Part shown: in pieces, positions 10,134 through 50,701 of the stretch | How the letters are laid out: every line of letters begins with the position of its first letter | Numbering within the stretch: the stretch's first letter is position 1 | From: Heterodontus francisci | Taxonomy: Eukaryota | Length of the DNA stretch: 64,000 nt | Assembly (NCBI RefSeq): GCF_036365525.1 | Contig: NC_090404.1 | Location: 6,820,001-6,884,000, forward strand | Direction: 5' to 3' | Notes under the pieces: generated by a model | Told to the model about the DNA's origin: nothing | The model's database searches: none | The model's input: only the letters and a program-made list of their open reading frames with translations | Program-made: the position numbers and the translations under genes

Positions 10134-10181
10134 CTGCAGTCACCGTCACCATGGTCCCTTGTCCCCAGTAGTCCATGGCGT
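10134..10181 (-). pseudogene. IGHJ: IgH J segment (AMDYWGQGTMVTVTA) with mutated splice donor
   Basis: Minus strand reads AC GCC ATG GAC TAC TGG GGA CAA GGG ACC ATG GTG ACG GTG ACT GCA G, with the WGQG motif. It is followed by TTAAG where a phase-1 GTAAG donor is expected. Confidence 0.92.
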
Positions 10182-10220
10182 CACAGTGTTACATTCCCTG
10201 GGCTGGGTCACACATTAACA
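10182..10220 (-). other. 23-bp-spacer RSS 5' of JH
   Basis: Heptamer cacagtg 10182-10188, 23-nt spacer, nonamer-like acattaaca 10212-10220. Confidence 0.85.
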
Positions 10221-10546
10221 GGCTGTGCACAGAATAGAGAGAAATCCATCATTATTTTAAACATCCACACACCAGAGGCAAAATAAAATCATGATGGTTC
10301 TTCGTAAAATTGTAACTGCGCGAATGATTCTTTTCACTGTTGATACATTATCCTGATGTTTTATATTTCACTCAGTAACATATCAGCAATTATTGAAATC
10401 ACCAACTCATGAATGAATAATTAATCAGTTGATCCATGATAAACCGTGCTAGGAGAACAGTGCTGGACACAAATAGTACTTCACTGTGTACACATTTGGA
10501 TTGCGAAAACGAGCACTGACCCAGACTCTTAAATTAGTGCTGAGGG

Positions 10547-10574
10547 AGTTTTTGAATTGACAGTAACTGATGTG
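10547..10574 (-). other. 12-bp-spacer RSS directly 3' of the VH/D fusion
   Basis: Minus strand CACATCA + GTTACTGTCAAT (12 nt) + TCAAAAACT. Confidence 0.8.
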
Positions 10575-11056
10575 CCACCTGCCCTGCACAGTAATAGATG
10601 GCGGTGTCTTCAGTATTCAGGTTCTTCATGTCCAAAGCGAAGATATTATGTGAAGTGTCTTTGGACGCAGTAAATCAATCTTTAATCTCTGGGGCGTCGT
10701 TGTTGTCAGATGAACTATCGTAGTGAACCAACCACTCCAGCTCCTGCCCGGGAACCTGTCGGACCCAATGCATCCGATAGTTGCCATGATTGAATCCGCT
10801 GGTTTTACATGTCAGTCTCAGGGAGCCTCCGGGTCTCCTGGTCTCTGCATCTGGCTGAGTCAACACGATATCCGAATGGACACCTGTAAAAAATATCAAA
10901 AACCCTGAGGATTAATCCTGGTGAAATGAATCCTGACTCTGTAACATTCCAGAGAAAGACAAACACTGAGACAGTAACAGTGAGAGAATCAGACAATAAA
11001 AACTACTCACGGGATAAGAAAACCAGCAACAGACTGAGAGAAATCGCCGACCTCAT
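10575..11056 (-). pseudogene. IGHV: IgM-type VH pseudogene (leader exon 11056-11011, intron, V exon from 10883) joined to a short D remnant
   Basis: Leader MRSAISLSLLLVFLS with GTGAGT donor and TTTACAG acceptor. V reads [100 protein letters not shown], with TGA at 10677-10675 where R (CGA) is expected. Then CAGGTGG and a 12-RSS. Confidence 0.93.
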
Positions 11057-11147
11057 CCTTCTGGCAATTCGGGGAAAATGGTTCTGGTAAGAACTCACTG
11101 AGCAAACCGACTCCCGGACTGTTGTATTGCGGTCACAGTGACCGTCC

Positions 11148-11270
11148 TTTAAATACCCAGCAGAAGGGGGCGAGGTTCCAGGCGCCGCCTATCGATTCCC
11201 TGATAGAGGCGGTTACTGGATCCTCATCCCATCTTCCACATCACTAAAGTAATGGACTCACATCATTACA
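11148..11270 (-). promoter_or_regulatory. Putative VH promoter (TATA-like TATTTAAA and two AGTGATGT-like decamer boxes)
   Basis: TATTTAAA at 11155-11148, about 92 nt upstream of the ATG; AGTGATGTGG (~11236-11245) and AATGATGTGA (~11258-11267) on the minus strand; no perfect octamer seen. Confidence 0.45.
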
Positions 11271-13469
11271 CTGGGATATTATTAAATGTGAACGTTTTAT
11301 CTCTATCTTGGGATAGGTATTTGGATGTCTGGTTTGAATGCAAACTGTTACACGGTACTAAATGGTAATATTGCAGTTGAGAATGTGTTCAGTAACAAAT
11401 AATTGCATTGTGGACTGTGAATTAAACCCCTTTATTTCGGCAAAACTACACTAAGGATGTCAAAGCCTAAGATTAAATCATATTATCTGGGTCTGAAGCG
11501 ACTGCTCGTTGCTCTGTCTCTTGCTATCCAACCCTATAGCAATAAAGTATCCCCGATAATGTTTTTTAAAAATCATTTTATGCAATAAAATGCGGGATAT
11601 TAGAAAAGTGATTCTATTTGCAGCGTGAATGACTGTAGTTACCCTACTGAGGACCAGAGTGAATAGAAACACTTCACGTTACACAAGTCTTTCTCTCTCT
11701 CTCTCTCTCTCTGTATATTTCTCGAATTGTTCTTGATTCTATGACCCTAAGCGAGCCATTTGAAAATTACCTGCACAATAAGTTGACTTGCCTGATAATG
11801 AAGGAGTGACATGTAAAATTCAGATCAGCTTTTGAAAAACAGAAGCTCGTGAATCAGAACTGATATGGCGATCAGCAAATTTGTCCCCCTGCATGCTAAT
11901 TATTGCAGATAACTGTAATAGCGACAGACTGTGCAACATACTTTGGTGTTAGAAACGCAGCTATCAAGACTTGACGCCATGCTACATGGAAACGGATCAC
12001 AAACTGAGGATTTCTCGATCCATCGGTAGCCTGGCTATGAGAAGGCTAGTTTAACAATCGAAATCATCAAAAATTAAACTGTATGGTACGCAGCTGTTAT
12101 CAGTAATAAAGGAGTCATTAGTTTGAATGTAATTCACACCTCTGTGAGGAAACTCAAGGAAATGCTGCGGGTTCAAGGCAATTCCACCTATTTATTTATT
12201 ATGCTATTCCCACTTATATCAATATGATGTGGGTATGGACTTATTAAAATCTCACTCTAGGACATCATGCAGTAGGAACTAAATGGACTAAATTATCTTG
12301 AATCATATTTGATTGACATTTGGGTCAATTTATTATTTTGAGCTCCCATTATGTCATGACTTGAGCACTGAATTTACCTAAGGTCATTCTTTAGATGTGA
12401 TATCACGTAAAATGCAATTTTTAAAGAGCGCTGCTGATTAACTTAATGTTTAAATGTTTAAATCCAATTTTTGTCCATTCTATTCACGCTAATCTGCCCC
12501 ACACAGTATTTGGCAGCAAACCAGCTAAATGCTGTCAGGGAGCCTCGAATACCCAATATTATTTACAGGAAGCATCTGGGTGTTCTGTGCAGTAAATCAA
12601 AGATCTGTTTCCTCTTTACTGACCGCTTTGCTGCAAGCCAACTTCAAACTCTTAACATTGTGAATGAGGCCCATTCATAAACAAATCTACCCAGCAACAA
12701 TACTGGATTCAAATTTATTTTTTTCAGTTGTTAAACTCTGTGAACTGTTCCCATCTCTCAGGAAATGAAATACATTCAAACTCTAGACACACTTTTCGGA
12801 GCAACAGTCCACTGGAGAATCTGTCAGCACATCATAACATTGCAACAGAAATACAGACAGCCAAACATATATACAGACAGAGAGGGGATTAGAGAGAGGA
12901 TGACTTCTGAAAGAGATAAATATGCTGACTTGCATGGACAGAGGGACAGATGCAGCGATGCTGAAATGAATGGATAGCTGGAGGTATGAATGTTTTGTAT
13001 AAAGGACCGATGAACGGATTGATTGATGGATGTATGGATTGATAGATGTGAGAATGAATGGATGGATGGGCCTGAAAGATACTGTTTTACAGTCTCGTCT
13101 TTCTGATTGACTATTCCTAAGCTAAACCCGCCATTTGTATCAGTCTGACGCCTTCAGTCCTTCCTGATTTTCTGGATCATTTTAATTCCTAGGTTATCCG
13201 AAGTTAACGAGCTGAATTCACAAAGAGAAACCTGAGATATCCCTGTGGTACTGATATTCCTTCTCTGCTGATGGCGAATTTTCGTCTCAAAGGGAGAATA
13301 TGACTGGGTTGAGAAAGGACGATTGTAATATTTCTGAACATGTGGTCCTTTCACGCCCAACAAATCACTCACCCGAATTACTTCAATCGCATCAGACATG
13401 TCGCAAACGAGTAGATACATTTTTTCACTTCCCTACAGGAATTATTTTTTATTTATCTGGAGATGCAGC

Positions 13470-13750
13470 CCTGAAAACCACCGAGTCCACGCCGACCATC
13501 AACCACCCATTTATACGAATCCTACATTAATCCCATTACCCTCTCACATCCCCACCTTTTCCTGCACGAGGTAGCACAGTAGGGGCAGGTTATAGCGGCC
13601 AGTTTACCAATCAACTGTGGGAGGAATGCAGAGCACCCAGCGAAAACCCACGCAGTCACAAGGAGAACTTGTAAACTCTGCACAGGCAGTACTCAGAATC
13701 GAACGCGGGTTGTAGGAGCTGTGAAGCTGCGGTGCTAACCACTGCGCCAC
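13470..13750 (-). mobile_element. HE1-like V-SINE copy
   Basis: gagcacccagcgaaaacccacgcagtcacaaggagaacttgtaaactc core typical of V-SINEs; paralogous to 17830-18135. Confidence 0.7.
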
Positions 13751-14039
13751 CCTACTTGCGCCTCTGTGAAATTAGTACAGTCCCACATCGAAGGAGCATA
13801 AATTGCAACTTTATTTAACGCTTTATATTCATCGTAAGTCATTGCCACAGTTAAATATATCCTGTGGGTGTTACACATCGTGGTCACAAATTCAAACGTC
13901 CTGAACTCCTTTAAACACACTCCCCAGAGGCTCTCCATTCAGTCCATTCATGTACTGAATGAATTGTTCACGAATTGCACGTGTGAGTTCAGTACTTCAG
14001 TGAGATGTGCTCAGGTTGATGGGAAAGGGTCACTGTGAT

Positions 14040-14600
14040 AAGAATATAAGAAATAAGGGCAGGATTAGGCCATTAGGCCCCTCCAGCCTGCCAACCATTC
14101 AATAAGTTCATGGCTGATCTGATTGCTACCTCAACTCCACTTTCCTGCTTGCCTCCCATAACACTTGACCCCCTAGTCAATCACAAATTGGCAAATTTTG
14201 AGATTCTGCTCTGTATTCCAAGATCCAAGTCATTTATATGTCGCCTTTGGTTACGTTGCAGTTCACCTTGAATCTGTTCCCTCTGGTTACTGACCCTTCT
14301 TTCACTGGAAATATTTTCAGCTTATTTATTCTACCAAAATGCTTCATGATTTTGAACGCCTCTATGAAATCTTCTTTTAATCTTCTCTGCTATCAGCGGA
14401 ACAATCTCGTTTCCTTCACTCTCTCCACGTAATTGAAATCTTTCATCCCTGGCGGTACCATTTCAGAAAATCTTTTCCAGACCCTCTCCAACTCCCCGAA
14501 GTCCTTCTGAAAATGTGGTAGCCAGAACTGGGCACAATACTCCCGCTGAGACCGACTGGAGTTTTGGAAAAGTTTATCATAAGCATTCTTTTTCAACTCG
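14040..14600 (-). mobile_element. CR1 3' fragment
   Basis: Minus translation EYCAQFWLPHFQKDFGELERVWKRF; CR1-type 3' end near 14040. Confidence 0.75.
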
Positions 14601-15518
14601 AGTAATCTATGGCCGAGTGTAATGAGAACTGAGGTAAGAGTTAATGTAATATAAACAGATACATGGCGTGGTTTAGTTATTACTGAGTCAGAATCTAGTG
14701 CAGTATGAATTGACGCATTGTGCAAAGCAGTAATAAATGAGACAGTATCTAGTGTCATAGAAACAAAGCCGTAGTGGAATGCAGTAATAATTGAGACGAT
14801 GTCGAGTGTAATATAGACAGAGACGTGACATACCGTAATAGAAACATTGAAATCATCTTGCGTAATAAATTTAGAGCTTTGGTCAAATGTATTAAATTAT
14901 CAGCAACTACGCTTTGAATAGAAGGAAGTAAAATGCTAAAACATAATTTCTGGAGATAATAATCTATCTTAATCGAATCCACTTGTACGTATGTATTACA
15001 ACGTGCCTTCTATACAAACACACATATTATATATATGCATATATAAACACACAGATGCATACATACATGCACATACATACACACTTGTGCGTGTGTTTGT
15101 GTGTTTGTGTGTTTATGTGTGCTTGGTTAGTTTTCGGTTGTTCCGATCTCGCAGCTGAGAGTTATGCTATTCAGTGGATTTTAGGACCATGTGGCAGCCC
15201 ATACAGCTGTGCTGTGTGATCACAGTTCCAGACTCTTTCTGACACAGTCAATGGGTCAGACGAAAGCTAAAGAGAAACCCCTGCAGGGTAAAAAGAAAAT
15301 CAATCCTTCACCACAAAAAGAAACTGTCAGCAATTATCACAGTACAGCACAAGAGTGTATTAGTAAACGTGAACACAACAGTTTATCACTAAGTAGTGTA
15401 TCCATATAATAGTGAAACGATCTGGCCGGGCCTCATATAATATAAAAAAAAAGTCATGGTCCAATGTAATTAAACAGTGTTATGATCTAACGTGATATTC
15501 AATTCAATTCAATTTCAG

Positions 15519-15755
15519 TTTATTGACGATAAGTTGAATTGGGCGGAACATTGTAGAGATGTGGTGCCAAAGAACGTAAACGAATGTCCTACCTCAGAAA
15601 GTTAAAATCCTTTCGAGTAGATCCCACAATCATGAAACTCTTCTATGCGGCTGTAGTTGAGAGTGCTATCCTTTTCGGATGTCTCTCCTGCTACTGATGT
15701 CTTAGGAATGGAGATTTTGTAAGAGTACAGAGATTATTGAACCAGGCAGGAAGGG
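15519..15755 (+). mobile_element. Rex1/Babar-like LINE RT C-terminal fragment
   Basis: Translates IDDKLNWAEH...RMSYLRKLKSFRVDPTIMKLFYAAVVESAILFG, resembling the post-RT domain of Rex1/Babar elements. Confidence 0.65.
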
Positions 15756-16479
15756 TAGAAAGATAGAAAATCCAGCAGGAAAAACATCACTTCGCAATAA
15801 AAAGAAACCGTGAGCAATTGTCACAGTACTAGATAACAGTGAATTAGTAAATTTTAACACAACTTTCTGAAAAATAGTGAAAAATAAAATGCACTATTGC
15901 TCACCTTTAGTCCTGTCCTTCATTCCCAGTTCATCTCTGGGTGATTGTTATGTTATTCCAGCTGAGGCCTACCCTTTTTTTTGGAAAAGATTGGCATAAT
16001 CATTATTTTTCTGCTCGAATCGTCTATGGCTTAGTAACAATGAGAACTCAGGCAAGGCCGAATGCAGTAGACTAAGCTTTATTCTGTGCACTTTAGAAGA
16101 ATGAGAGATGATCTCATTCAAACATGCAAAATTCTTACAGGACTCGGCCTGTTAGATGCAGGAAGCATGTTTCCCCCGGCTGGGGAGTCTAGAACTAGGA
16201 GGCATAGTCTCAGAATAAGGGGCAGGCCATTTAGTACTAAGATGAGAAGGAATGCTCTGTCCCAGAGGGCTGTGGAGGCTCAGTCTTTGAGTATGTTCAA
16301 GACTGAGATCAGTAGATTTCTACAGTTTAAAAACAACAAGGGATACTGGAATAGTGCAGGAAATTGGTATTGAAGTTAAAGATCATCTATGATCTAATTG
16401 AATGGTGGAGCGGACTCTAAGAGCTGAATGGCCTACTCCTGCTCTCATTTCTTATGTAATATAAACATAGAAATAGTCC

Positions 16480-17085
16480 TGTGGTACACATTACATTACA
16501 CTCGACCCTGTTTACGTTACGCTCGATACTGCCTCAGGTCTTACTGCACGAGACAATCTCTCTCTCTCTCTCTCTGTCTGTTTCTCTCTCTCTCTCTCTC
16601 TCACTCTCCCCCTCTCTCTCTGTTTATATTGCACCTTCTCCTCCCTCAATTATTAAACCATGTTTCTATTTCCATTGCACTAGATCCTGCCTCAGTTATT
16701 ACTCGACTAAATCAAGTCTATGCTGACATTTCACGAATTTCACTAGATCCTGTCTCTGTTTATGTTACACTAGCCCCTGCCTCCTTTATTACTGCAATAG
16801 AACATGTCTCTGTTTATATTGCACCAGGCTCTGTTCCAGCTTACTATATTAGAGCAGTGTAGTTATTAGTGCAGGAGACCATTTTTCTGTTTATAATACA
16901 TTAGGCCTTGCCCATTTATTACTGCATTAGATCATGTTCCCTATATATTACACTAGACTATGTTGCTTTTTATATTATGCTGGGCCGTGCCTCAGTTATT
17001 GCTGCACTAGGACATATCTCTATTTATACCATTAAACCATATCATTCCGTGTAGTATGTTAGTTTCTGCCTCAGTTATTAATGAA
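16480..17085 (+). repeat. 27-bp degenerate minisatellite array, with a CT microsatellite at 16557-16620
   Basis: Units like ctagaccctgtctctgtttatattaca. Confidence 0.8.
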
Positions 17086-17829
17086 CTTAATCATAAAAAT
17101 ATTTTCATATAAAAATATACATCAGGGAGGAAATAATGAAGGTAACAGGCTAAAAATGAAGTGACTGGCAACAGAAATGGTGCGAAATTCACTGGAAATC
17201 ATCTAGTGTTTCATTCCTATGCAAAGAAGTAAAATAACAAATCAGTCATTTACAGATTTATTAACTTCACATCAGGTACAGTAGTTTCATTTTTACCATC
17301 ACTTGCATAAATCATCACACATGTGAGGTACATACCAGCAGCTACTGTGTGACGGTGAGGTGATTATTAAACAATAAAACACAGAGACTGGTGAGTAGCT
17401 GCTCATTATCCTCGAACTGCAATTACATTCTGAATTTTAAAAATTGCTAAAAAATGATTGAAGATAATTATTTATATTTGTGGAATTGCAAACAATATGT
17501 TGTGTTCTGTACACATACACAAACGCATATATAATGAACAATTTGGGGGTTATTTTGGTAAAAGGGGGAAAGCAGGGGCTAAATGGGCACTGTTCTAATG
17601 AAACACCCCTCTTTGAATGTCTGGATTTAGCACCCAATTCTGATCTAAATGCTGATTACCATAATTGAACTTGCCTGGAGTAGCTAAACCGGTGACCTGC
17701 AGATTCAGCACTAAAGTACTGAATAACAACAATTTTCTTGAAGCAGTATATGTGAGTTCCATGCACCCACTTCCCCAATAAGTGTGGGGCGGTCTTGCTG
17801 ACAGACAGTGACATGTTTCAGGATAGAGT

Positions 17830-18135
17830 CATAAACTGATACAGCACTGAAACAGGCCCTTCGGCACACCGAGTCTGTGCCGACCAACAACCACCCATAT
17901 ATATGCTACATTAATCCCATATTCCCTACCACATCTCTATCATTCTCCTACCACCTACCTACACTAGAGGCAATTTACAATGGCAAACTTACCCATCAAC
18001 CTGCAGTCTTTGGCTGTGTGAGGAAACCGGAGCATCCGGTGTAAACCCACGCGGTCACAGGGAGAACTTGTAAACTCCATACAGGCAGTACACAGGACTG
18101 AACCCGCATCGCTGGAGATATGAGGCTGCGGTGCT
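17830..18135 (-). mobile_element. HE1-like V-SINE copy
   Basis: gaggaaaccggagcatccggtgtaaacccacgcggtcacagggagaacttgtaaactcc core with a CR1-like 3' tail. Confidence 0.7.
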
Positions 18136-18153
18136 CAGGAACCAATTACGTGA

Positions 18154-18243
18154 ATGCACAGATTCTCAGACACAGCATTGTAGGTCCTGGTGGAGGAGAT
18201 CCAGGGGAGGAGGGATATCCTGTACCCGCAACGGGGAGGAAGC
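18154..18243 (+). mobile_element. Fragment of a Myb/SANT-like gene of a PIF/Harbinger-type transposon
   Basis: MHRFSDTAL*VLVEEIQGRRDILYP resembles the RFS..L..LV.E....R..L. helix of Harbinger Myb-like proteins. Confidence 0.5.
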
Positions 18244-19192
18244 CCAGTTCACCCTCCTTTCTCACTATCCTACAGCTACTGTGGCTGCTCTGCCTGGCCT
18301 CAAGTCCTGCCCCCATTCGTCCAACCAGCAAGATGCCAATGATCAAGTACTTCTTTTCTCCTCGTGACTCCTCTAAGGTAAGGTCGCACAGCTCTTACAC
18401 TATTCGGGTGAAGCCCCGTAGAATTTCCAAGAATAAATGTTGATAGGGTGTTCGCGAAGTCGAAAAAGTGTCCCAGAAATTCTCCCGATGGGTTTCAAAA
18501 GTCCTCTTCAAACATTCAGCAGCAAATGGACAGGAAAAGGTGATGTACCTTGAAGTGGCACAAAAACCTCTGCAACAACTTTTTACTCTTAATCAGCTGG
18601 TTGCTGTTTAGAGAGAGGGTCGGGCAAGTTCTAGTTAACAAAATGGAGTGCAGCCTTTTTAATGAGAGCTAACATACAATTTCAGTGACAATCGGCTGCT
18701 GAATGAGCCTCTAGGCAGCCTCTTCTAGCTCAAGGATCAACTCTTTTACCAAGAAGGCATCTTCCGTTAAACGCAGGCTGATTCAATGCTTCAGCTTCAT
18801 ATCCAACCTTGGCTCCATTGGAAGCTCAATGGCTCTTAAAGTATCTGGGAAACCGCCCCCACTGTCATATCATGAACCAATAATCTCTCCATTCCCCCTT
18901 GTCTGTTGATGCAGACATTAAAGCTCCCATGGTTCCCACACTGTGTCCTTGTCAACATTCCTCCTTTCTACCAAGATCAACAAAAACACATTTACAAGAG
19001 TACAGCCACTTTACTCTATTACTGATGTTTCTGCGCAGAAATCGGCCACGTTTTTCTGGAATTAGTTGCACCTCAAAATTTGAGAGCTCCCAGAGAAGGT
19101 GATTAGGTGGTACATCAACACAAGTTGTTTTTTGATGTATTTATGTCAGGATTTGACATCGACATTTTCACAATAGGCGCAATGGCGAAACG

Positions 19193-19211
19193 TGGCCACC
19201 AGGTGTCAGTA
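19193..19211 (+). promoter_or_regulatory. CTCF-like motif
   Basis: tggccaccaggtgtcagta versus consensus TGGCCACCAGGKGGCRCTA. Confidence 0.6.
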
Positions 19212-19249
19212 AAAGCTCGATTGTTCACATTACATGAAACAGGCGGTGC

Positions 19250-21265
19250 CTCAATTATTACTGCTCTTGACCCTGTCTCTGTTTATATTACATTATGCCC
19301 TGTATCAGTTATTACTGCACACGTCTCTGACTCTGTTTATATTACACTAAGCTCAGTTTCTATTTATAATACACGAGACCCTGTCTCCGTTTAAATAAAA
19401 CTTGACCCTGTCTCTGTTATTACTGCACTAGGCCATATCTCTGTTTATATTACACTAAATGCTGTCTCTGTTAATGTTGCACTGTCATTTCCTATTTGTA
19501 TTGCAACAAATGTTGTCTCTGATCATATTAAAAAAGTCCATGTCTCAGTTATTTATGTATTGTTCCAATCTCAGGTGTTTCTGTTTATTGAACACAATGC
19601 CCTGTCCCAGTTATTAGTGCGTCTGTTTATATTATACGAGGCCTTGTCTCAGTTCTTATGGCACTAGGCCCTGTTTCTGTTTAAATTACATTAGACCGTT
19701 TCTCTGCTTATATTACACAGTATCCTGTCTCCGCTTATATTGCATTAGACCCTACTTTAGTCCATTTTGCATCAGATGTTGGCTGTTTATATTGCACTTG
19801 GTAATTTTTCTATTTGTATTTCAACAAACATTGTCTTTGATCATAATAAAGCAGTCCATGCCTCATTTTTTTCCACATTTGCCCAATCTCAGGTGTGAAT
19901 ATACTAAACAATGTTTCTGCTTGTATCACGCAATGCCCTATCTCAGGCATTAATGCATTAGACCCGTGTGTCTGTTTATATTGCTGTAGGCCCTGCCTTG
20001 GTTATTGCTGCACTAGATTATGTTTATCTTTGTATCACAGAATGCCCTGTCTCTGTTATTATTGCACTAAACCATCTCTCTGTTACTATTACATGGATCC
20101 CTGTCTCACTAATTGCACACTTGTTCTTATCTCACCTCATAAAAAAAATGAGACCCTGTGTCAGTAATCACGACACTCAGGTCTGTCTCAGTTTATATTG
20201 CACAATGTCCTCTATTAGTTGAACCTGCACTGGACCTTGACTCAGTTTTTCATATACTAGACCCTGTCTCACTTGTTACTACACTCTACCATGCCCCTGT
20301 TCATATTACACAAGACTCTGTCTCAATTATTACTGCACTCAACTCACTTCATGTTACACTCGATTATATATCTGTTTAAATTACATCAGACCATATCTGT
20401 TGTTCCTGCACTAGACCCAATCTCAGTTTATACTACAATGGGCCCTGTCTTGGTAATTACTGAACTACACCCAGTGTTGGTTTATATTACTGTAGGTCCT
20501 GTAATTTGTGCACTGGACCCTGGCTTTGTATTACTGCACCAGACCCTGTTCCTGTTTATAATACAACAGAGCCTGTCTATGACTCTGTCCCAGTTCTTTC
20601 AACATTCGACCCTGTCTCAGCTGTTACTGCACTGGTCACTGTCTCTATTTATATTACACTCTGTAAAATCTCAGTTAGTGTTGAACATGTCTTTGTTTAT
20701 ATTATATTAGGCCCTTTCTCAGTTAATGTTGCACTGGTCCATGTCTCAGTTGATATTAATTGAGGCCTTGCATCAATCATTACTGTACTAGGCCCTGCCA
20801 CAGTTATTACTGCACCACATAATGTCTGTTTGTTTTGCACTAGAGACTGTCTCATATTAGACTAGACCTTGTTTCAGTCGTCACTGGACATTGTCGTGTC
20901 TCTGTTTATATTACACTAGACCCTGTCTCTGTTTATATTACACTGGACCCTGTCTCTGTTATATCACACTAGACCATGTCCCTGTTTATATTGCGTGAGA
21001 CCCTGTTTCTGTTGTTATTAAACAAGACCGTGTCTCTGTTTATATTACTGTAGACCCTATCTCTATTTATATTACTCTATGCCCAGTTTCAGACCCTATT
21101 AGACCTATTACACTTGATCCTATTCATATTAAACTAGACCATGTCTGTTTATATTGCACTAGATCCTGCCTCTACTTACGTTACTCGAGGCCCAGTCTCC
21201 ACATCCTATTAGACCTATTGCACTTGAACCTGTCGGGTTATCACTGAAATAGGCCATGTCTCATT
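19250..21265 (+). repeat. Large 27-bp minisatellite array
   Basis: Near-perfect adjacent units at 20901-20960 (tctgtttatattacactagaccctgtc); degenerate units throughout. Confidence 0.9.
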
Positions 21266-21297
21266 GAGATGATGAAATATTATTATAAAAAGATGTT

Positions 21298-21483
21298 AGG
21301 CTGGAAATTGGTCTCGTGTATCAGCTCAAAACGGGCACTATCTGATCGGCCGCCCGTTCTACCCAACCCCTGATATTCAGTTTCATTTCAGTCAATGGAA
21401 TTAAATATCAGGTGCTGCCTATACCGGGCGATCAGTCCAATACTGACCGTTCTGTGCCACTGCCTGAGACCAATTTCTAACTC
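21298..21483. mobile_element. MITE-like element with terminal inverted repeats
   Basis: ggctggaaattggtctc ... gagaccaatttctaac termini and an internal palindrome cctgatatt...aatatcagg. Confidence 0.65.
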
Positions 21484-27002: not shown

Positions 27003-27003
<1 letters not shown>

Positions 27004-29451: not shown

Positions 29452-29456
29452 GTCTG

Positions 29457-35684: not shown

Positions 35685-35800
35685 CCTTGATTGGCTTAAC
35701 CTGGCGCATGTGAGGCGTCATTGTCCAATATTGCCGCGAGCGGTTCAGCTTTATCAGCTTCCGAGCAAAGGACAGATTTTTGTAAATCAGCTCAACCTGA
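35685..35800 (+). promoter_or_regulatory. Putative TCR V promoter (CRE-like and CCAAT motifs)
   Basis: gattgg at ~35689, tgaggcgtca 35711-35720 and ccaat at ~35725, 110-145 nt upstream of the leader ATG. Confidence 0.45.
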
Positions 35801-35833
35801 AGAGACTCACCGTGGCTGGGATTGCCCTCAATC

Positions 35834-36304
35834 ATGCATTGCAAATTCACCCTTTTGACTACTCTCATCTGTTTAACATTTGGTAAGTCTTTAACTGATG
35901 ATATTGTACAAACCTTTGTAAGACACAAGAGTGTTTAAAATGAAACTCGCAATTAATTTATAATCATACTTTCAATCTTTCCACCAGATCTGCTTCAGGG
36001 AGATTCTGTGTCTCAGGATTGGTCGGCTGTAGTCATGAAAGTGGGACAGACTTTCAGAACCCAATGTAGCTATTCGACAACAGTAGGCAGCTACGACCTG
36101 TACTGGTACAGAAAGTATCCCGATGCTCCCCCGGAGATGATCGTGTGGAGAAGTGCCAGTGGCAGTCAGGGAAAAGCAAAAAACATTGGGAATCGCTTCA
36201 CTTCTGAATTAACCACATCGTCAAAAGTGTCTATTTTAACCGTCACTGATCTCCAGCTGAGAGACACGGCGCTGTACATTTGTGGATTCGCTCGATCATT
36301 CCGA
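35834..36304 (+). CDS. TRDV/TRAV: Intact TCR delta/alpha-type V segment (leader exon 35834-35882, V exon 35988-36304)
   Basis: Leader MHCKFTLLTTLICLTF + GTAAGT; acceptor ccaccag. V reads DLLQG-DSVSQDWSAVVMKVGQTFRTQCSYSTTVGSYDLYWYRKYPDAPPEMIVW...NRFTSEL...LTVTDLQLRDTALYICGFARSFR, with both cysteines and the conserved W. Confidence 0.93.
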
Positions 36305-36343
36305 CACAGTGATACAACCTAATGGTTCACTCGTACAAAAACT
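36305..36343 (+). other. Canonical 23-RSS
   Basis: cacagtg + 23 nt + acaaaaact. Confidence 0.95.
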
Positions 36344-39540: not shown

Positions 39541-40544
39541 AGGGCAAAGGTCTTCACACCGACCACTGCAAATCTTCCTCCAGCCCGAACACATCCATGA
39601 ATTACGATTGCCCATATTGGAACTAAATGAGCAAAAGATATAGTCAGAAGGAACATTTAGTTGGCGGTTGAATTTTTTAAACTCTAGGTCAGTACTAAAC
39701 AGAGGAAGCAAGTTGAAAGCAAGTTTCATGATTCGTTGCTCCAAGCGGCCGATTTAAACATTATGGCCACCAAATGGGAGAGAGAGGACTCTCCTGCTCC
39801 CAGGACTCTATCACTCCAGATTATAACTGGGCAGATTCTGAGGAAATTCATTTATATGAAAATATGAGTTTAAATTAACAAGTAGAAAAGATAACAATCA
39901 CAGCCAGAATACAAAAAATGGATCCTGGCATATTCATGGAGTGATCAGTATCAAGTTGCTGTGTCAGCAAACATTTTCTCGGAGCTGATCCGAACATAGA
40001 ACTGCAACGTTTGGAGGATAAAGTTGATCAGATGCTGGAAGAGTAGTTTAACCGCAAATGCATTCTTTGATCACTTTTTCTGTCTGTTTGGATTATGCAG
40101 TTTGTTTTCTCAGCCGGTCCTGGAAACAATTGGGTGACAGTTTGATACGAGGTTAATTTGGTTTCCTCTGGATGTGTGTTTGAAAATCTAACAGCGTGCT
40201 GCACATTGTAGCAGCGAAACCCCTATTAAACTGTTCACTTTGTGCCTTTGTATTGATTAATATAAACATGAATCTATACACATGATTCAATATCCTTCTC
40301 CTGTTGTCTCTCTGAATCACTCACTGTACTAAGTCTCACCTTTCTTTATTTCCTTATGTATAACTCTCTGTACTCAGTCTGGCCTTCATCTCCCTCTATT
40401 AGTGTTTCTCTGTATCACTGTACTCAGTCACAACGTGTTCTATCTTCCTCTGTTGTCGTCGCTCTCTATCACTGCACTGAGTAACATCTTTATTTATCTC
40501 CTTCTGTTGGTGTCTCTCTGTACTCTGTCTCACCTTTATCTATA

Positions 40545-40750
40545 ATAAAAGCAAAATACTGCAGATACTGGAGATCTGAAATAAAAAACAGAAAGTGCTG
40601 AAATACTCAGCAGGTCTGGCAGTATCTGTGGAGAGAGAAGCAGAGTTTCAGTTCGGATGAAAGGTCACAGGCCTTAAAAGTTAACTCTGCATCTCTGTCC
40701 ACAGATAGTGCCTGACCTGTTGAGTACTTCCAGCATTTCCTGTTTTTATT
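40545..40750. mobile_element. Inverted-repeat Penelope-like insert, degenerate
   Basis: Direct repeat tcacc(t/a)ttatctat at 40530-40543 and 40751-40764; same arms as the 34.5 kb copy. Confidence 0.65.
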
Positions 40751-41024
40751 TCACCATTATCTATGTTCCTCATTTTGCAGTTCTCGCAAAGTGTGCAGAC
40801 AGGCACAGGGCGAATCTATGGAGGGAGTCACTCAGCTGCACATCACTGTTGATCAAATCTTTAACTATTGAGAACAGACAGACTCTGAGCTGATGCACCT
40901 TGGGGTGCCTCACTCATTCATCTGCACAGAAATTTGCCCAGCTCTTCAATCATTGAGATCTGACCAGGATAGGGCAGATCCACAGATGGGAGAATCACGA
41001 ACCTCCACAGGCAAAAAGATCTAG

Positions 41025-41295
41025 CACGATGTAAAGAGACAGGGTCCAGTGTACCATAAAGAGAGTCGTGGTCGAGTGTGATATAAATAGACACCGAGTC
41101 CAATGTAGTATAAACAGTGACATGGTCTAGTCTAAAATAAACAGACACAAGGTCTAACGTAATATAAACAGATACGTGGTCGAGTGTAGTCATAACTGGG
41201 ACAGGGCCTAGTGTAATATAAACAGGGACATGGCCTCGTTCAGTACTTATTGAGGCACGGTCCAGTGTAAAATAAGCAAATATCATGTCTATTAC
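41025..41295 (-). repeat. 27-bp minisatellite array, inverted orientation
   Basis: Units such as gtgtaatataaacagggacatggcc. Confidence 0.75.
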
Positions 41296-44200
41296 ATAGA
41301 AATATAGAAAATAGGAACAGGAGTAGGGCACTCAGTCCTTCGAGCCTGCTCTGCCATTCTTTTTGATCCTGGCTGATCATCCAACTCAATAACCTGTTCC
41401 CGCTTTCTCTCCGATATCTTTTGATCCCTTTCGTCCAAAGAGCTATATCTAACACCTTCTTGAAAACGTAAAATGTTTTGGCCTCAACTGCTTTCTATGG
41501 TAGCGAATTCCACAGACTCACCACTCTCTGGGTGAAGACATTTCTCCTCATCTCAGTCCTGAAAGGTTTACCCCGTATCCTTGGACTATGACCCCTGCTT
41601 CTGGACTCCCCACCATCGGGAACATCCTTCCTGCATCTAGCCTGTCAAGTCCTGTGAGAAATTTATAGGTTTCTATGAGATCCTCCCTCACTCTTCTGAA
41701 CTCCAGCGAATATAATCCTAACAGACTCAATCTCTCCTCATACGTCAGTCCCGCTATCCCAGGAATCAGTCTGGTAAACCTTCGCTGCACTCCCTCTATC
41801 GCAAGATCATGGTTCCTCAGATAAGAAGACCAAAACTGCACACAATATTCCAGGGGTGGCCTCACCAAGGCCCAGTATAGTTGCAGCAAGACATCCCTGC
41901 TCCTGTACTCGAATCCTCTCGCTCCGAAGGCCAAAATAACATTTGACTTTTTTTTCCTGCCTGTTGCACCTGCTCACCTTCAGCGACTGGTGTGTGAGAA
42001 CACCCAGGTCTCGTTGCCTATTCCCCTCTCCCAGTTTATAGCCGTTCAGATAATAATCTGCCTTCCTGTTTTTGCGACCAAAGTGGATAACCTCACATTT
42101 ATCCACATTATACTGCATCAGCCATGCATTTGTCCACTCACGCAACTTGTCCAAATCACGCTGAAGCCTTTCTGCATCCTCTTCACAAGCCACCCTCCCA
42201 CCCAGATTTGTGTAAACTTCAAATTTGGAGATATTACATTTAGTTCACTCATCTAAATCATTAATATATATTGTGAATAGCTGGGGTCCGAGCACTGATC
42301 GCTGCGGTATCCCACTAGTCACTGCCTGCCATTCCGTAAAAGACCCAGTTATTCCTACTCTTTGTTTCCTGTCTGCCAACCAATTTTCTTTCCATCGCAA
42401 AACATTACCCCCAATCCCATGCGCTTTCATTTTACACGTTAATCGCTTATGTGGGACTTTGTCGAAAGCCTTCTGAAAGTCCAAATACATCACATCCACT
42501 GGCTCCCCCTCATCAACTCTACGAGTTACATCCTCAAAGTGTTCTGGTAGATTTGTCGAGCCTTTTCCCCATAAAATGTCCCTTTCGTAAATCCATGCTG
42601 ATTCTGCTTCATTCTACCAGTGTTCTCCAAGTGCTCTGCTATAAAATCTTTGATAATGGACTCTAGAATTTTCCCCACTACCGACGTCAGGCTGACTGGT
42701 CCATAATATCCTGTTTTATTCTCTATCTCCTTTTTTAAATAGTGGGGTTACATTAGCTACCCTCCAATCTGTAGGAACTGTTCCAGAGTCTATAGAATCT
42801 TGGAAGATGACCACCAATGCATCCATTATTTCTAGGGCCACTTCCTTACGTAATTTGGGATGTAGATTATCAGGTCCAGGGATTTATCGGCCTTCAATCC
42901 CATCAATTTCCCCAACACCATTTCTCTACTAATACAGATTTTTTTCAGTTCCTCTCTCTCATTAAGCCCTGTGTTTCCCAACATTTTCGGTGTATTTGTG
43001 TCCTCCTTTGTGAAGAGAGAACCAAAGTGTGCATTTAGTTGGTCAGCCTATTCTTTGTTCCTCATCATAAATTTCCCTGTATCTGACCGTAAAGGACCTA
43101 CATCTGTCTTCACCAGTCATGTCTTACCAACTTAATAGAATTCTTTGAGGAAGAGACAAAGTTGATTGATGAGGGGAGGGCTGTAGATGTCATATACATG
43201 GACTTCAGTAAGGCGTTTGATAAGGTTCCCCATGGTAGGTTGATGGAGAAAGTGAAGTCGCATGGGTTCCAGGGTGTACTAGCTAGATGGATAAAGAACT
43301 GGCTGGGCAACAGGAGACAGAGAGTAGCAGTGGAAGGAAGTTTCTCAAAATGGAGAAGTGTGATCAGTGGTGTTCCACAGGGATCCGTGCTAGGACCACT
43401 GTTGTTTGTGATATACATAAATGATTTGGAGGAAAGTATACGTGGTCTGATTAGCAAGTTTTCAGACGACACTAAGACTGGTGGAGTAGCAGATCGTGAA
43501 GGGCACTGTCAGAGAGTACAGCAGAATATAGATAGATTGGAGAGTTGGGCAGAGAAATGGCAGATGGAGTTCAATCCGGGCAAATGCGAGGTGATGCATT
43601 TTGGAAGATCCAATTCAAAAGTGAACTATACAATAAATGGAAAAGTCCTGGGGAAAATTGATGTACAGAGAGATTTGGGTGTTCAGGTCCATTGTTCCCT
43701 GAAGGTGGCAACGCAGGTCAATAGAGTGGTCAAGAATGCATACGGTATGCTTTCCTTCATCGGACGGGGTATTGAGTACAAGAGTTGGCAGGTCATGTTA
43801 CAGTTGTAAAAGACTTTGGTTCGGCCACATTTGGAATACTGCGTACAGTTCTGGTCGCCACATTACCAAAAGGATGTAGATGCTTTGGAGAGGGTGCAGA
43901 GGAGGTTGACCAGGATGTTGCCTGGTATGGAGGGCGCTTGCTATGAAGAGAGTTTGTGTAGATTAGGATTATTTTCATTAGAAAGACGGAGGTTGAGGGG
44001 GGACCTGATTGAGGTGTACAAAATCATGAGAGGTATAGACAGGGTGGATAGCAAGAAGCTTTTTCCCAGAGTGGGGGATTCAATTAATAGGGGTCACGAG
44101 TTCAAAGTGAGAGTGGAAAAGGTTAGGGGGGATATGCGTGGAAAGTTCTTTACGCAGAGGGTGGTGGATGCCTGGAACGCGTTGCCAGTGGAGTTGGTAG

Positions 44201-44745
44201 ACGCGGGCATGATAGCGTCTTTTCAGATGTATCTCAACAGATACATGAATGGGCAGGAAGCAAAGAGAAACAGACCCTCAGAACATAGGCGACAGGTTTA
44301 GATAGAGGATCTGGAGGGCCGAAGGGCCTGTTCCTGTGCTGCAATTTTCTTTGTTCTTGTTCTTTTTTGTTCTTTTTCTCTTTACATATCTATAGAAACT
44401 TTTACAGTCAGTTTTTATGTTTCCTGCAAGCTTACTCTTGTACTCTATTTTCCCCTTCTTAATTCATCCCTTGGTCCTCCGTTGCTGAATTCGAAACTGC
44501 TCCCAATCCTCAGGTCTGTTATTTTTCCTGACGAATTTCTTATGTCTCTTCCTTGGATCTAATGCTATCTCTAACTTCCCTTGTAAGCCATGGTTTGGCT
44601 ACTTTTCCCATTTTATTTTTGCGCCAGACAGGGATAAACAATTGTTGCAGTTCATCCATGCGCTCTTTGAATGTTTGCCATTGCCAATCCACCGTCATCC
44701 CTTTAAGTAACGTTTCCCAATCCATCAGAGCCAACTCACACCTCC
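41296..44745 (-). mobile_element. CR1 LINE with disrupted ORF2, interrupted by a younger CR1
   Basis: Minus ORFs 41548-41934, 41807-42193, 42245-42499, 44540-44779; the host sequence resumes after ~44372. Confidence 0.9.
43119..44372 (+). mobile_element. Young 5'-truncated CR1 nested in an older CR1; same subfamily as 53413-57564
   Basis: ORFs 43162-43809 and 43816-44301 are nearly identical to the C-terminal part of ORF 53494-56601; ttctttg-type tail; gtc microhomology at the 5' junction. Confidence 0.93.
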
Positions 44746-46121
44746 TAGCTCTGGAACGACGGAGGTGGAGGGGCGACATGATAGCAGTTTACAAAGTTAT
44801 AAGCCGCATGTAACACAAATATAGAATGTTCCAAAATTCAGGCAGTAAACATAATCCTCAAAACATACATTGACCATTTAACTATCGACTCACCGGGCAG
44901 CAAGGGCATTATTATCAATAAGGAATATAGGAAGTAAGTAGTGTTAGGTTTAGAGTTCCACAGAAAATAAAAGAATGTTCAAAATATGTTGACCTTTCCA
45001 GTGTGATATTAAACTGTAAACTGATATCAGGACTGGCTTCACTTAACGGGAAACAGAGGGCGATTCCCAGGGATAGGATTGGCTGGTCTGTCAGAACTGA
45101 TGATAGCTGGGTTCCAATCAATGACAACTGTAGAAAATTATTTTCTTTGATCTTTTCTTTTTCACTTTCTGACTTTCTTGGTGTACCTGTCTCTCTCTCG
45201 GTGTCTGTCTGTCCCTGTCATTCGCTCTGCCACTCTCTTCGGTGTTCCGTGAAATTGCGTAGTTTTGAAATTCTAACTTATTTCTGAATCTCATTTGAAC
45301 GAGTTCCCCACACAAAGTAAAGAAAAGAACTGTGTTTCATTGGTGTTCCATTAATCCTAACAGTTAAGATACGAACCGCAGCTCAGAGACAAGTTTAAAA
45401 TGGCACCAATTACATTTAAAATATCCCACCATTTATTAGATAGTCGGGAGTCATGAGAAAATCCAAACCCTATGTATGAGGCGCAGAACCTAAGAGTTGG
45501 AATTTGCAATATATTTATACAGTTATTTGATAATATCGCAAACTTATTATTGTTGGTATTAGTATTATACACTTTAATTCAGACAGCCAAATGTGTCTAC
45601 TATCTACAAGACGCGCTGCAGCAACACACCACGGCTCCTTAGACAGCAATTTCAAACCCGCAACCTCTTGCACCTGGAAGGACAGGTTCAACAGACGCAT
45701 GTGAACACCAACAATTGTGAGTTCCTCTCCAAGCCCCACACCATCCTGACTTGAAACTATATCACCGCTCCTTCACTATCTCTGGATCACTATCTGTATT
45801 CACTCTTACTAAATTAAAAGTCTAGTCAGATGAATTGTGGAATTATTAATGTGAAGTCCAACTAATTTTTGCAAATTAACATACAATATGCTAGGGACTT
45901 GGGCATGCCAGAAAACGGAGACAAAAAAATCTCAGAATTAATAGAAAATAGCATCGGTAGCTACAGTAAAACAATAAAATGACTGCAGTTACAGCAATAA
46001 TACAAATAAAACCATGACAACTATAATATTTTAGCATGATAATAGGTCAACATGATCATGCAGCAGTTTCGCTGATGAATTGTGAATCCAAATATTTCAC
46101 AGACAGGGGTGTATTTACCTT

Positions 46122-46338
46122 AAATAAAAACAAGAAATGTTGGAAATACTCAGCAGGTCTGGCAGCATCTGTGCAGGGAGAAGTAGAGCTAACGTTTCAG
46201 GTCAGTGAACTTTCTTCAGAACTGACCTGAAACGTTAACTCTGCTTCTCTCTCCACAGATGCTACCAGACCTGCTGAGTATTTCCAGCATGTCTTGTTTT
46301 TATTTCAGATTTCCAGCATCCGCGGTATTTTGCTTTTA
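46122..46338. mobile_element. Inverted-repeat Penelope-like insert with hammerhead-like core
   Basis: Absent from the paralogous copy at ~51598; direct repeat gg(g/a)gtgtatt(t/a)acc at 46106-46119 and 46343-46356; minus strand AGTT CTGAAGA AAGTTCACTGACCT GAAA CGTT AGCT. Confidence 0.7.
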
Positions 46339-46361
46339 TATTGGAGTGTATTAACCGCCTG

Positions 46362-46380
46362 ACGCCACTGGATGGCGGTC
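46362..46380 (+). promoter_or_regulatory. CTCF-like motif
   Basis: acgccactggatggcggtc. Confidence 0.5.
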
Positions 46381-49300
46381 CAGCACCTCATCTTTGGCCA
46401 AAATCGGCAGAGCCATCAGTTTAATGATTTCACAGGAGACAGCTGGAGATTACAGGATATACTTCTGTGTGATATCACCGCACAAGGTGGTGTATTGACA
46501 GCAAGGGTAAATTACAGGTATTACGGCATGGTTGACTCAGGTAGTGAACTTTTGGAGTCATTGTCTTTTCATTAATCTAATGTCACTGTACAGTCTGATG
46601 AATACGGTAACAATTCTTCTTTTCAAAATGGTACTTCACTGTGTCATAAACAGACAGACATGCAAAGAATTTTATCGATTGTTTTGTGACCGGATGATGC
46701 TTATTTGCTGGTGATAAATTGGAATTATCTGGAAAGCATCTGAACTCCCAAATCCCTTTGTTCCTCCACAAGTGTTAGATTGACAAAACATTTTGTCAGA
46801 CAATGAAACTTCTCACCTTATTCTGTGAAAATAATATTTCTTGCATTGAAACAGCGACGTCACCTGAAAAGTATTTCCTTGGCTGTAAGGCACTCTGGAC
46901 GCACTGAGGCCGGGAAAGGCGAAACATAAATAAAAGTCTCACCGTTTCTAGTATGAAAATACATTTTCTTCCGTGAGATATGTCACTGGAGGGATTAACT
47001 TTATTGCCCGCCTATTTCCTCGGGCACAGGTAGAGTTTCTTTGGTTCAATTGTCTTTGATTGACGAGCGATCAACACCTGTTGTGATGTTGTGGATTTGG
47101 TCTCAGGTCTGCTCAGAAACTCTCCGCTCAACGGGGCACCCGCAATCTGTTTTTTGTATTCTTTTATGCGATGTGGGAGACTGTGGCAAGGCCAACATTG
47201 GCTGCCCATCCCTAATTCTCCCTGAGAGGTTTGCAGTGAGCCACTTCATGAGCTGCTGCAGCCCGTCTTATGTATGTATACCCACAATGCTGTTAGGGAG
47301 CGAGAATGAGGTTTCTGACTGAGCAAAACTGAAGAAACGGCGATATGGTTCCAAGTCAGGATGGTGTGTGGCCTTGGAGAGGAACTTGCAGGTAGTGGTT
47401 TTCCCATACGTCTGTTGCCCTTGTTCTTTTAGCGGGTAGAGGTGCTGTCGAAGGAGCCTTGGTGAGTTGCAGCAGTGCATCTTGCAGATGATACATACTG
47501 CTGTCACTGCGCCTTGGTGATGGAGGGAGTGAATTTTGAAGGTGGGGGATGGATTGCCAATCAAGCGGGCTGCTTTGTCCTTATAGCGTCAAACTTCTTG
47601 AGTGTTGCTGGAGCTACCCTTCCCCAGGCAAGTGAACAGTATCTCATCACACTGCTGACTTGTTCCTCGTAGATGATGGAAAGGCTTTGGGGAGTGACGA
47701 TGTGAGTTACTGGGCACAAAGCTCCCAGCCTCTGACCTGCTCGAGCTGCCACTATATTTATATGGCAGGTCCACTTAAGTTTCTGGAACATGGAAACCCC
47801 AGGATGTTGATGGTGGGGAATTCAGTGATGGCAATGTATTTGAACCTCAAGCGGATGTGATTAGATACTCTTTTGTTGGGGATGGTCATTGCCTGTAAAT
47901 TACGTAGTGTGAAGTTTACTTGCACTTATCAGCCCAAGCCTGAATGTTGTCCAGCATTTGCGGGCACGGACTGCTTCAGTGTCTGAGGAGTTTTCAATTG
48001 TGCAGACTACTGTGCAATCACCAGACAACATTCACACTCTGACCTTATGATGGAGGGATGGTCATTGATGAAGTAGCTGAAGATTGTTGGGCCTAGGGCA
48101 CTACCCTGAGGAACTCCTGCAGCAATGTCTTCGGGGTCACATGATTACCCTTCAACAACAGCCAACATCTTTTCTTTGTGCTCGGTATGACTCCAACCAG
48201 TGGAGAGTTTTGCCCCGATTCACATGGGCTTCAATTTTGCGAGGGCTGCTTGATGCCATACACGGTCAAATGCAGCCTTGAGGTCAAAGGCAGCCATTCT
48301 CACTTCACGTCTGGAAGTCATCTGTTTGTCCATGTTTAAACCAAGGCTGTAATGAGGTCTGTAACTGATTGTCCCAAACTGAGCATCGGTGAGCAGGTTA
48401 TTGCTGAGTAGCTGCCACTTGATAACATTGTCAATGATACCTTCATCAGTTTGCTGATGATCATGATTTGACCAATGGGGCGGTAATTGGCAGGTTTGGA
48501 TCTGTCGTAGCTTCACGAGGTTGGCACCTCATCTTTAAGTCTGTCGAGACCAACAACCCAGGCAGCTTCCGCTGGAAGAAGGTTGGGTTTTGCTTCATTC
48601 AGTAAATGACTGGGCCATGGAGGGCTGAGGTTCCCACAAGTCACAGCGGCTGGGAAAGGTCCCCTATCTGTGGCACGGGCCGCGCTGCACTTTGGGAGAC
48701 CCGACAACACATGCGCACATCACCAATCGCCTTTCATATTCTCGCACTCAACATCACACCATGGTAAAATCAATACAGAGATTACAGTTGATTTCGGGTG
48801 CGAATATATTGTTCACTGCCTTTGGCAAACACGCAGTTACCCGAAGCCACCACCAAGTCACGCGCCTGTCTGGTGTAGAGTTTCCACATTGATGTCGGAT
48901 TTAAAGAACAATCAGAAATTGCCGTTTGTGTTTATTTCGTACCATAAATCCACAGTGACCAGAAAGCATAGGGATATCACGTTACATATAAAGTGAGAAA
49001 ACAAGGGAAGGAAATATGAACATTATTTTAAGGGTGTCCGTAAGGAGAAAGATTGAGGGGCTCAGATAAATAAGGTTTGAAACAAGGCTGTAAAATTCTA
49101 TGATTCCAGATGCGCTGAACATTTGGGATAGAAATAGACAAAGATTAAATCTTCCTGAACCACTTAATTCATCACTACTCAGAGCAAGAAGAGAAATTCA
49201 TTCCCAGTGAAGGGTCAGGGCTTTTCTTTTTGTCTTGAGAAACAGCCAAACCCCTAGAGGCTTAGCGAATGACGTCTGGTGACAACATCCGATTATAGTC

Positions 49301-49461
49301 CGATTGGCGAATGTCGCCCATCAGTCTCACACTGTACGAGGAGAATGTAAAGCTCTCCCCTCTCCTCCCCCTCCTCACCATTGAGAGTCTGGGACTCGGC
49401 AGCATGTCCCAGTCTGGACATCAGACCCTGATTGATGCGCCTTTTGTCCTTCTTCACCATC

Positions 49462-49888
49462 ATGAACAGAAACCTCCACAAAAACCTGTCTCCAGTTGGA
49501 GTTCTGCTGCTGTTGATGTTGGGTGAGTTTATTTATCTGATCATAGACTTTGTTTCACCAATATCTTAATACCTTGTGGTTGTTGAATAATTTTGTTTTG
49601 CTCACAGCCGTTCAGTGTGAGGATCAGAGCTCACACCCTGAGCAGGTGGTGTCTCGGGAAGGGGAACGGGTTGAACTGGACTGCTGGCTCTCCATTGCTG
49701 CTGGGGATACAGTAGACTGGTACAGACAAACACTGACAAGGCACCGACATTTATCGGCTCCATATACCAGGGGACTGAGACTACAGGACGCTACACACTG
49801 TCGTTGGACCCAGTTCAGAAGTCCAACACCATTTCTATAGATCCCACCGAGGCCCAGGACGCCGGTCTGTATCACTGTGCAATGGGGA
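49462..49888 (+). pseudogene. TRAV/TRDV: TCR alpha/delta-type V segment with a single 1-nt frameshift (leader 49462-49522, V exon 49608-49888)
   Basis: Leader MNRNLHKNLSPVGVLLLLML + GTGAGT; acceptor ctcacag. V reads AVQC-EDQSSHPEQVVSREGERVELDCWLSIAAGDTVDWYRQT, shifts at ~49733, then DKAPTFIGSIYQGTETTGRYTLSLDPVQKSNTISIDPTEAQDAGLYHCAMG. CRE-like tgacgtct at 49270-49277 upstream. Confidence 0.88.
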
Positions 49889-49927
49889 CACAGTGAGGCA
49901 AAGAGCGGATCCGGCTGCACAATATCT
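49889..49927 (+). other. 23-RSS
   Basis: cacagtg + 23 nt + acaatatct. Confidence 0.85.
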
Positions 49928-50381
49928 TGTTTAGTGCCGTGTCCCTGCTGCATCTTTAACCTTTCCCCAAACCAAGCCCTTTGGAAGTATTGGTGATATT
50001 CAGAAATGTTAATGGTCCGTGTTTAAACTTCCCTCTGGATAAAGTTTCATCATTCTATAGCTGTCACTGCAGATACAGTGCATCGAAACATAATTAACTG
50101 AGATATTATATGTTTAGTTGCACAACATACAGAGTAAATAGATGAACAAACATTGAACAATGCCTCCCACACAACATCGATAAATAAATAGCGCAAGAAA
50201 GAGGGAGGCAAATTAATATATAGATAGAGAGATAGATATAGATGGATATATAGTTGTACCGATTGATAAACCGACAGGTAAGTAGATAGATCGATAGATA
50301 GGTATGTAGATTAGTTCATTTTACCTGTATCAATTCTCTTTGCGTTTATCATTATAATAATTATTGATCTTGCTTTGACAG

Positions 50382-50662
50382 CTGTTCCTTGTCACTCGGA
50401 GACATTCCAAATGTCGGTGCATCAAGGAACTGAAGGACAAACCATTTCACTTCATCACAACGCTGCTTTCGCTCCAGCTGATTCGATATTCTGGTGCCAG
50501 CAGTTCTCCAATCAAGCTCCCCAGTATCTCCTCTCCACATACAGAGATGAGAAAGTTGAGGGAAGGTTTAAAATATCTGTCGACAGTGAGAAGGGCTCCA
50601 CTACTCTTATGGTAAACACGGCTCGGCTGTCAGACGCTGCGGTGTATTACAGTGCAGTGAGA
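50382..50662 (+). pseudogene. TRAV: TCR alpha-type V exon, open frame but both canonical cysteines lost; no intact leader found
   Basis: Acceptor tttgacag. Reads VPCHSETFQMSVHQGTEGQTISLHHNAAFAPADSIFWCQQFSNQAPQYLLSTYRDEKVEGRFKISVDSEKGSTTLMVNTARLSDAAVYYSAVR. Confidence 0.85.
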
Positions 50663-50701
50663 CAAAGTGAAATAAAGTAATGAGGAGCCTGTACAATAAC
50701 T
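50663..50701 (+). other. 23-RSS with broken heptamer
   Basis: caaagtg (CAC changed to CAA) + 23 nt + acaataact. Confidence 0.8.

Follow-up and report, generated by a model that had tools for sequence, protein, structure and literature searches.

[quoted passage not shown] In Table S1 of that study, entries for IgM, for "IgM pseudo?" and for a single "IgM (gj)" stand among TCR alpha/delta V segments, in both orientations, together with Ig-like V segments beside C-delta and C-alpha, and the interleaved layout is shown there for white shark and for stingray (PMC12227049). TAILV and Ig-TCR-delta V segments are named in the same paper, and Ig-TCR linkage and Ig-TCR-delta chimeras have been noted elsewhere (PMC3964593, PMC5931798). 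Germline-joined IgM clusters of the types VD-J, VD-DJ and VDJ have been described in sharks, and are credited to RAG activity in germ cells (PMC5192425). In shark thymocytes, VDD-J has been reported to be more frequent than any other somatic intermediate (PMC2435157).

The stretch of DNA analysed here (the window, 64,000 nucleotides) corresponds to C34:6820001-6884000 on the plus strand, C34 being contig NC_090404.1 (59.5 Mb) of a 6.0 Gb genome. The genome is that of a shark, most likely a horn shark, as the V exon of one locus (L079) agrees at every base with the V of P0066, a sequence labelled by its source Heterodontus francisci. The window contains no N, and lies within an array at C34:3.37-13.9 Mb that is full of V-like exons in both orientations. 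Coordinates without the prefix C34 are counted from the first base of the window. The initial annotation had reported a minus-strand VH/JH near three plus-strand V segments, and these segments are real. Sequence inspection revealed a minus-strand IgM VH-D/JH and three plus-strand V exons, V1 (35988-36304), V2 (49608-49888) and V3 (50382-50662). Among the three exons scanned (V1, V3 and VH), the Pfam V-set cut-off was passed by V1, V3 and the 5' part of VH.

The order of IgM clusters and TCR V segments on C34 is the same as in the elasmobranch antigen receptor complex (PMC12227049). The table of that paper covers four other species by automatic gene models and holds neither a junction-level census nor a second C-delta, unlike the present analysis. 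The physical linkage of IgH and TCR alpha/delta segments claimed in the initial annotation is thus real but not special, as it is the normal published layout (PMC12227049). The window contains a broken shark IgM gene among TCR V segments, and since this layout has already been published for other sharks and rays the feature is ordinary: as originally framed, the finding is one more dead cluster in a known arrangement. We consider it highly probable that the locus is an inactivated IgM minicluster, its V fused to D2 likely by RAG in the germline, inside a multi-megabase TCR alpha/delta V array.

The inactivated IgM minicluster

All parts of the cluster are on the minus strand. The leader exon (11011..11056) is open and has a GT donor, whereas the VH exon (10585..10883) is a pseudogene with an in-frame TGA at 10677-10675, in FR3. 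The VH exon is followed by the V-D junction (10575..10584), which in comparison with unjoined paralogs ends in the last bases of D2, and by the D2 3' RSS with a 12-bp spacer (10547..10574), whose heptamer and nonamer each differ from the paralogs by one base. About 390 bases beyond this 12-RSS lies the JH segment DAMDYWGQGTMVTVTA (10134..10181), preceded by an RSS with a 23-bp spacer (10182..10220) that has an intact heptamer and two changes in the nonamer relative to the paralogs. The JH splice donor (10133-10132) reads TT, whereas it is GT in the other 44 pattern-matched JH segments.

The JH-Cmu1 intron occupies 1..10133 and continues past the left window edge. Cmu1 (C34:6818869-6818570) is found 1.1 kb beyond this edge, and the four exons Cmu1-4 together span C34:6818869-6815237, on the minus strand. 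The C-mu exons, which the initial annotation had proposed to look for on the left, are therefore all in place. Its statement that there is no CH exon holds inside the window, but is an effect of the window edge: the distance from JH to Cmu1 is 11.3 kb in this cluster, compared to 5.9-9.4 kb in five neighbouring clusters, which is why no CH was seen. Stops are present in Cmu2 and Cmu3, and Cmu4 contains both a frameshift and a stop.

The window cluster and a neighbouring one (C34:6762306) are colinear, starting at V and continuing past the last C exon, and the C exons of the window cluster are 76–90% identical to those of an intact neighbour. The last C exon and tailpiece of an intact neighbour match IgM constant regions at PDB ranks 3-8 (rank 1 is an IgG hybrid, rank 2 is unnamed). 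The colinear neighbour, at C34:6762306-6778401 on the plus strand, is a VDD-J cluster with an open VH and open Cmu1-4, and is arranged tail to tail with the window cluster.

The window cluster thus has what an IgM minicluster consists of, namely a V, a remnant of D2, a JH and four C exons in one orientation, with a mu-type constant region that has a secretory tailpiece. It does not have what a functional IgM gene needs: five separate lesions affect V, the donor of J and Cmu2-4, and the two RSSs that remain are damaged as well. The cluster is an IgM heavy-chain minicluster that is complete, yet inactivated. The VH TGA, the TT donor of JH and the damaged RSSs were absent from the initial annotation, which also did not report that V2 is frameshifted and that V3 has a broken heptamer and lacks its cysteines, as described below.

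Unjoined paralogs are organized as V-23, 12-D1-22, 12-D2-12 and 23-J. The distance from V to J is 0.42 kb in the window cluster against approximately 1.27 kb in the unjoined clusters, a shortening by about 850 bp. The deletion has one end at the V coding end and the other within D2, and lies precisely between coding ends bounded by RSSs; the D2 3' RSS and JH have been kept, and D1 has been lost or reduced. The configuration is likely of the VDD-J type, the other reading being a V joined directly to D2; the junction consists of 10 bases only, too few to decide between the two, and N addition and later mutation look alike in it. We infer that RAG cut the V 23-RSS and a D 12-RSS in the germline, which would have deleted the ~850 bp, and that the cluster probably decayed after joining. 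In its present state it would give rise neither to IgM nor to a VH-TCR-delta chain. As a partial join within a cluster it does not differ in kind from the germline-joined IgM clusters described in PMC5192425, and the window copy is a pseudogene.

The VH stop codon is covered, without differences, by short-read contigs from DNA runs X1 and X4, which possibly come from the assembly's own sample. None of the listed read contigs spans the V-D junction, and positions 10404-10520 have zero depth in every run. The germline status of the join therefore rests on the assembly consensus, and the fusion might instead have arisen by somatic rearrangement, in lymphocytes of the tissue that was sequenced, or by misassembly at this place, with the germline cluster unjoined. 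The frequency of VDD-J in thymocytes (PMC2435157) is consistent with a somatic origin. Somatic joins, however, should be clonally varied and would be unlikely to become the consensus; moreover, the window has no N, and the colinearity with the neighbour runs from V to beyond Cmu4. We consider this alternative very improbable, and favour a join present in the germline.

Very deep V-D-J joints in run X5 were considered as transcripts of the window copy. They were rejected as such and are read as transcripts of live paralogs, because their short side comprises 22-27 bases only and the letters in between resemble germline D1 and D2. None of the listed RNA data sets contained the window cluster.

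Joined and unjoined IgM clusters on the contig

A JH pattern gave 45 matches in the genome, all of them at C34:3.59-13.88 Mb (21 forward, 24 reverse), and a reversed control pattern gave none. These matches and one added cluster make up a census of 46 IgM-type clusters, in which clusters with a divergent JH may be missed. There are 25 full-length clusters, 10 VDD-J, 3 VDJ, 5 with other partial joins and 3 without a V within 2.2 kb. The other partial joins comprise one VD-D-J, one V-DD-J and three in which the D-J part is shortened and the V 23-RSS retained. In total, 18 of the 43 V-bearing clusters are joined in some way, whereas the nurse shark is said to be without canonical joined IgM (PMC5192425).

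None of the 25 full-length clusters has a stop or frameshift in V, compared to 8 of the 18 joined clusters, a contrast inflated by recent duplicates, as the eight defective joined V segments become five when four identical copies are counted once. Among the VDD-J clusters four out of ten V segments are open (C34:6032026, 6761150, 10106744 and 13619006) and six contain stops. The window VH and the V of its nearest full-length paralog are 89.8% identical, and a rapidly built DNA tree that carries no support values places the window VH as sister to a dead family of four copies. This tree contained 41 of the 46 clusters, the five omitted being the three without a V and two of a divergent VH family.

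At C34:6.95-7.38 Mb, there are about four repeats of a unit of approximately 105 kb, composed of one full-length and one dead VDD-J cluster. One junction and one stop are common to the four VDD-J copies of this unit, and joins have therefore been inherited and duplicated in this genome. A single junction shared by four copies nearby also speaks against a somatic or misassembled origin of the window fusion.

Three further arrangements were observed in the array. The clusters at C34:3591663, 3870964 and 6393513 are fully joined VDJ with open V frames, and their V-to-J lengths are multiples of three. In a full-length cluster at C34:4250989-4253389, part of the D2-J interval is inverted and a search for the RSS motifs of its D segments found none; possibly this is a germline inversional join. 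Finally, four identical VH exons in alternating orientation are present at C34:6699477-6731221. They have neither a JH pattern match nor a C exon in their vicinity, and either stem from a recent duplication with inversion or are an artefact of assembly.

The plus-strand V segments and a family without canonical cysteines

V1 has a leader at 35834-35882, an exon at 35988-36304 and a 23-RSS at 36305-36343, is open and is the only one of the three plus-strand V segments that appears intact. V2 (leader 49462-49522, exon 49608-49888, 23-RSS 49889-49927) has a frameshift in FR2 and is a pseudogene; its family also has open members. V3 consists of an open exon (50382-50662) and an RSS with a 23-bp spacer (50663-50701), whose heptamer lacks the invariant CAC in this copy. 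In a search with V2 and with V3, all 16 matches of each were located in the C34 array, where the tandem pair is repeated, the V3-type segment usually following the V2-type segment at a distance that ranges from some hundreds of bases to 1 kb. Splicing of V2 to V3 in frame, via the GT of the heptamer, was considered and rejected, as the phases differ. Another V-end-like motif on the plus strand at 46378-46500 (46448), beside a repeat, was dropped, since searches with the collected V segments at the protein and DNA levels gave no support for it.

In a protein tree, V1 fell inside a clade of 15 rows together with the delta-chain V of a sawshark (P0075), with a support of 87/80. The V2 and V3 families formed a separate clade with a support of 97/96, the window V2 being replaced in this tree by three V2 paralogs. 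The plus-strand V families did not group with beta-like or IgL-like rows, in a tree with unresolved deep nodes, unsettled bootstrap values and no TCR-gamma row. Rows were called beta-like or light-chain-like by RSS spacer and by sequence motifs, and these labels are presumptive.

The second match of V1 in an Atlas search was named TCR alpha/delta variable. The top 60 matches of V1 in PDB were antibodies and not TCRs, the search being swamped by multi-domain antibodies, and word-index protein searches with V1 gave no match, which is weak evidence only. For V3 and an open V2 paralog, every TCR chain among the top 60 PDB matches was alpha where a class was named, and the names in the Atlas also favour alpha. 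All three segments have an RSS with a 23-bp spacer, broken at the heptamer in V3, and are located in an array linked to D/J/C-delta and J/C-alpha. By these features, the three plus-strand V segments look like the TCR alpha/delta type.

In V3, the two canonical cysteines are replaced by His and Ser, and no leader exon was recognised. The seven paralogs inspected likewise all have His or Gln-His in the region of the first cysteine and Ser at the second. The frames are open in all eight copies inspected and the acceptor is conserved; a leader exon was not recognised in the family. Lower-ranked matches to V3 include broken copies, stops being present in 3 of 16. The mean dN/dS of the V3 family is 0.50, compared to 0.42 for five open V2 paralogs. 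Furthermore, P0153, a sequence from a short public contig that is 62% identical, is also without both cysteines. It is conceivable, though we regard it as rather unlikely, that V3 represents an undescribed working family of TCR alpha/delta V segments without canonical cysteines or a leader of its own, which would rearrange via the 23-RSS and borrow the leader of the V upstream. If so, sharks would have a disulfide-free TCR V domain.

The TCR delta/alpha core and the 12/23 rule

A representative search gave the sawshark chain P0075, which best matches human TCR-delta chains. With its C domain we found two exons, both on C34, and the TCR core was mapped by inspection of 360 kb of C34 DNA around them. 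The first delta/alpha core is on the minus strand, with one D (12-D-23) at C34:3343717, 16 J segments, C-delta1 at C34:3303943-3301755, 80 further J segments and, near C34:3184000, a C-alpha-like exon with a transmembrane exon. A search for C-alpha with the Pfam profile PF09291 did not find it, and gave one unrelated match on C26.

The initial annotation had proposed to look for D/J/C-delta and C-alpha to the right. They were found to the left instead, C-delta and C-alpha at 3.4-3.7 Mb from the window and D-delta about 3.5 Mb from its VH. Since this core is on the minus strand, it is the window VH and not the three TCR V segments that shares its orientation. The VH is thus inverted relative to the three nearby V segments only, not relative to the main D-J-C-delta/J-C-alpha core, and the plus-strand V segments would need an inversion to join the minus-strand D/J. 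The closeness of this VH to three TCR V segments probably results from repeated duplications and inversions, by which IgM clusters and TCR V segments come to alternate in both orientations, and it implies no special partnership.

A second TCR-delta unit, inverted relative to the first, was also observed. It is located at C34:3443366-3461947 on the plus strand, and consists of one D (12-D-23), eight J segments and an open C-delta2 with a transmembrane exon. C-delta2 shares 57% identity (55 of 96) with C-delta1 and its AG and GT sites are present, and IgH-like V segments are found between the two units. Neither a second C-delta unit nor a cysteine-less V was found in papers by title or start of abstract, or in a word search of PMC5931798; the main shark TCR papers were outside this search, and novelty is thus not implied.

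Seven of the eight IgH-like V segments beside the two D-delta units have a 23-RSS. TAILV segments are IgH-like V segments with a 23-RSS and without a JH or C of their own, and TAILV-like candidates on this contig are the C-less IgH-like V segments at C34:3.369-3.426 Mb that have a 23-RSS; in the tree, two of them make up a separate clade. The window VH resembles TAILV in being an IgH-type V inside the TCR alpha/delta locus. Unlike TAILV as so defined, it has its own D, JH and Cmu1-4, ends in a 12-RSS and groups with IgM V segments.

Under the 12/23 rule, a V that ends in a 12-RSS cannot join a 12-RSS of a J or on the 5' side of D-delta. All 104 J candidates found and both D-delta 5' RSSs have 12-bp spacers, and the fused window V ends in a 12-RSS, so that the 12/23 logic of the initial annotation is borne out. 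Its suggestion that germline joining removed an IgHV from the chimeric TCR repertoire is not demonstrable, as nothing in this analysis points to use of the V with C-delta; the V is also independently dead by its stop codon. The argument is valid but trivial here, because 25 full-length clusters with open V segments remain.

Another reading would be that germline VDD joining acts as a lineage filter: with a 12-RSS in place of the V 23-RSS, the D of such a cluster could still join JH in B cells, whereas D-delta and J-delta would be barred to the V, and joining would have taken the window V, then still alive, out of the chimeric TCR-delta pool. The RSS spacers of this genome fit this speculation, as do the open V segments in four of the ten VDD-J clusters and the open Cmu1-4 of the neighbour at C34:6762306; open VDD-J clusters imply that joining can precede decay. 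Evidence that the window V ever paired with C-delta is, however, lacking, and this V is dead anyway. Moreover, the loss would be negligible, as a 23- or 22-RSS is retained at the end of 30 of the 43 clusters with a V, 13 full-length ones being nearer to D-delta than the window V, in addition to the seven IgH-like 23-RSS V segments beside D-delta. Stops in six out of ten VDD-J V segments fit decay and not a selected class restricted to B cells. We find the lineage filter improbable, and retain the reading of an IgM cluster that was likely joined in the germline and then probably decayed.

The value of the census is modest: 18 of 43 IgM clusters in a TCR alpha/delta V array are pre-joined, in one assembly. 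The four open VDD-J clusters named above provide a test set for the 12/23 "B-cell-only" idea, and the VDD-J cluster at C34:6762306 is a better test case than the window copy. The second D-J-C-delta unit and the cysteine-less V family would be of interest to comparative immunology, if they are expressed.
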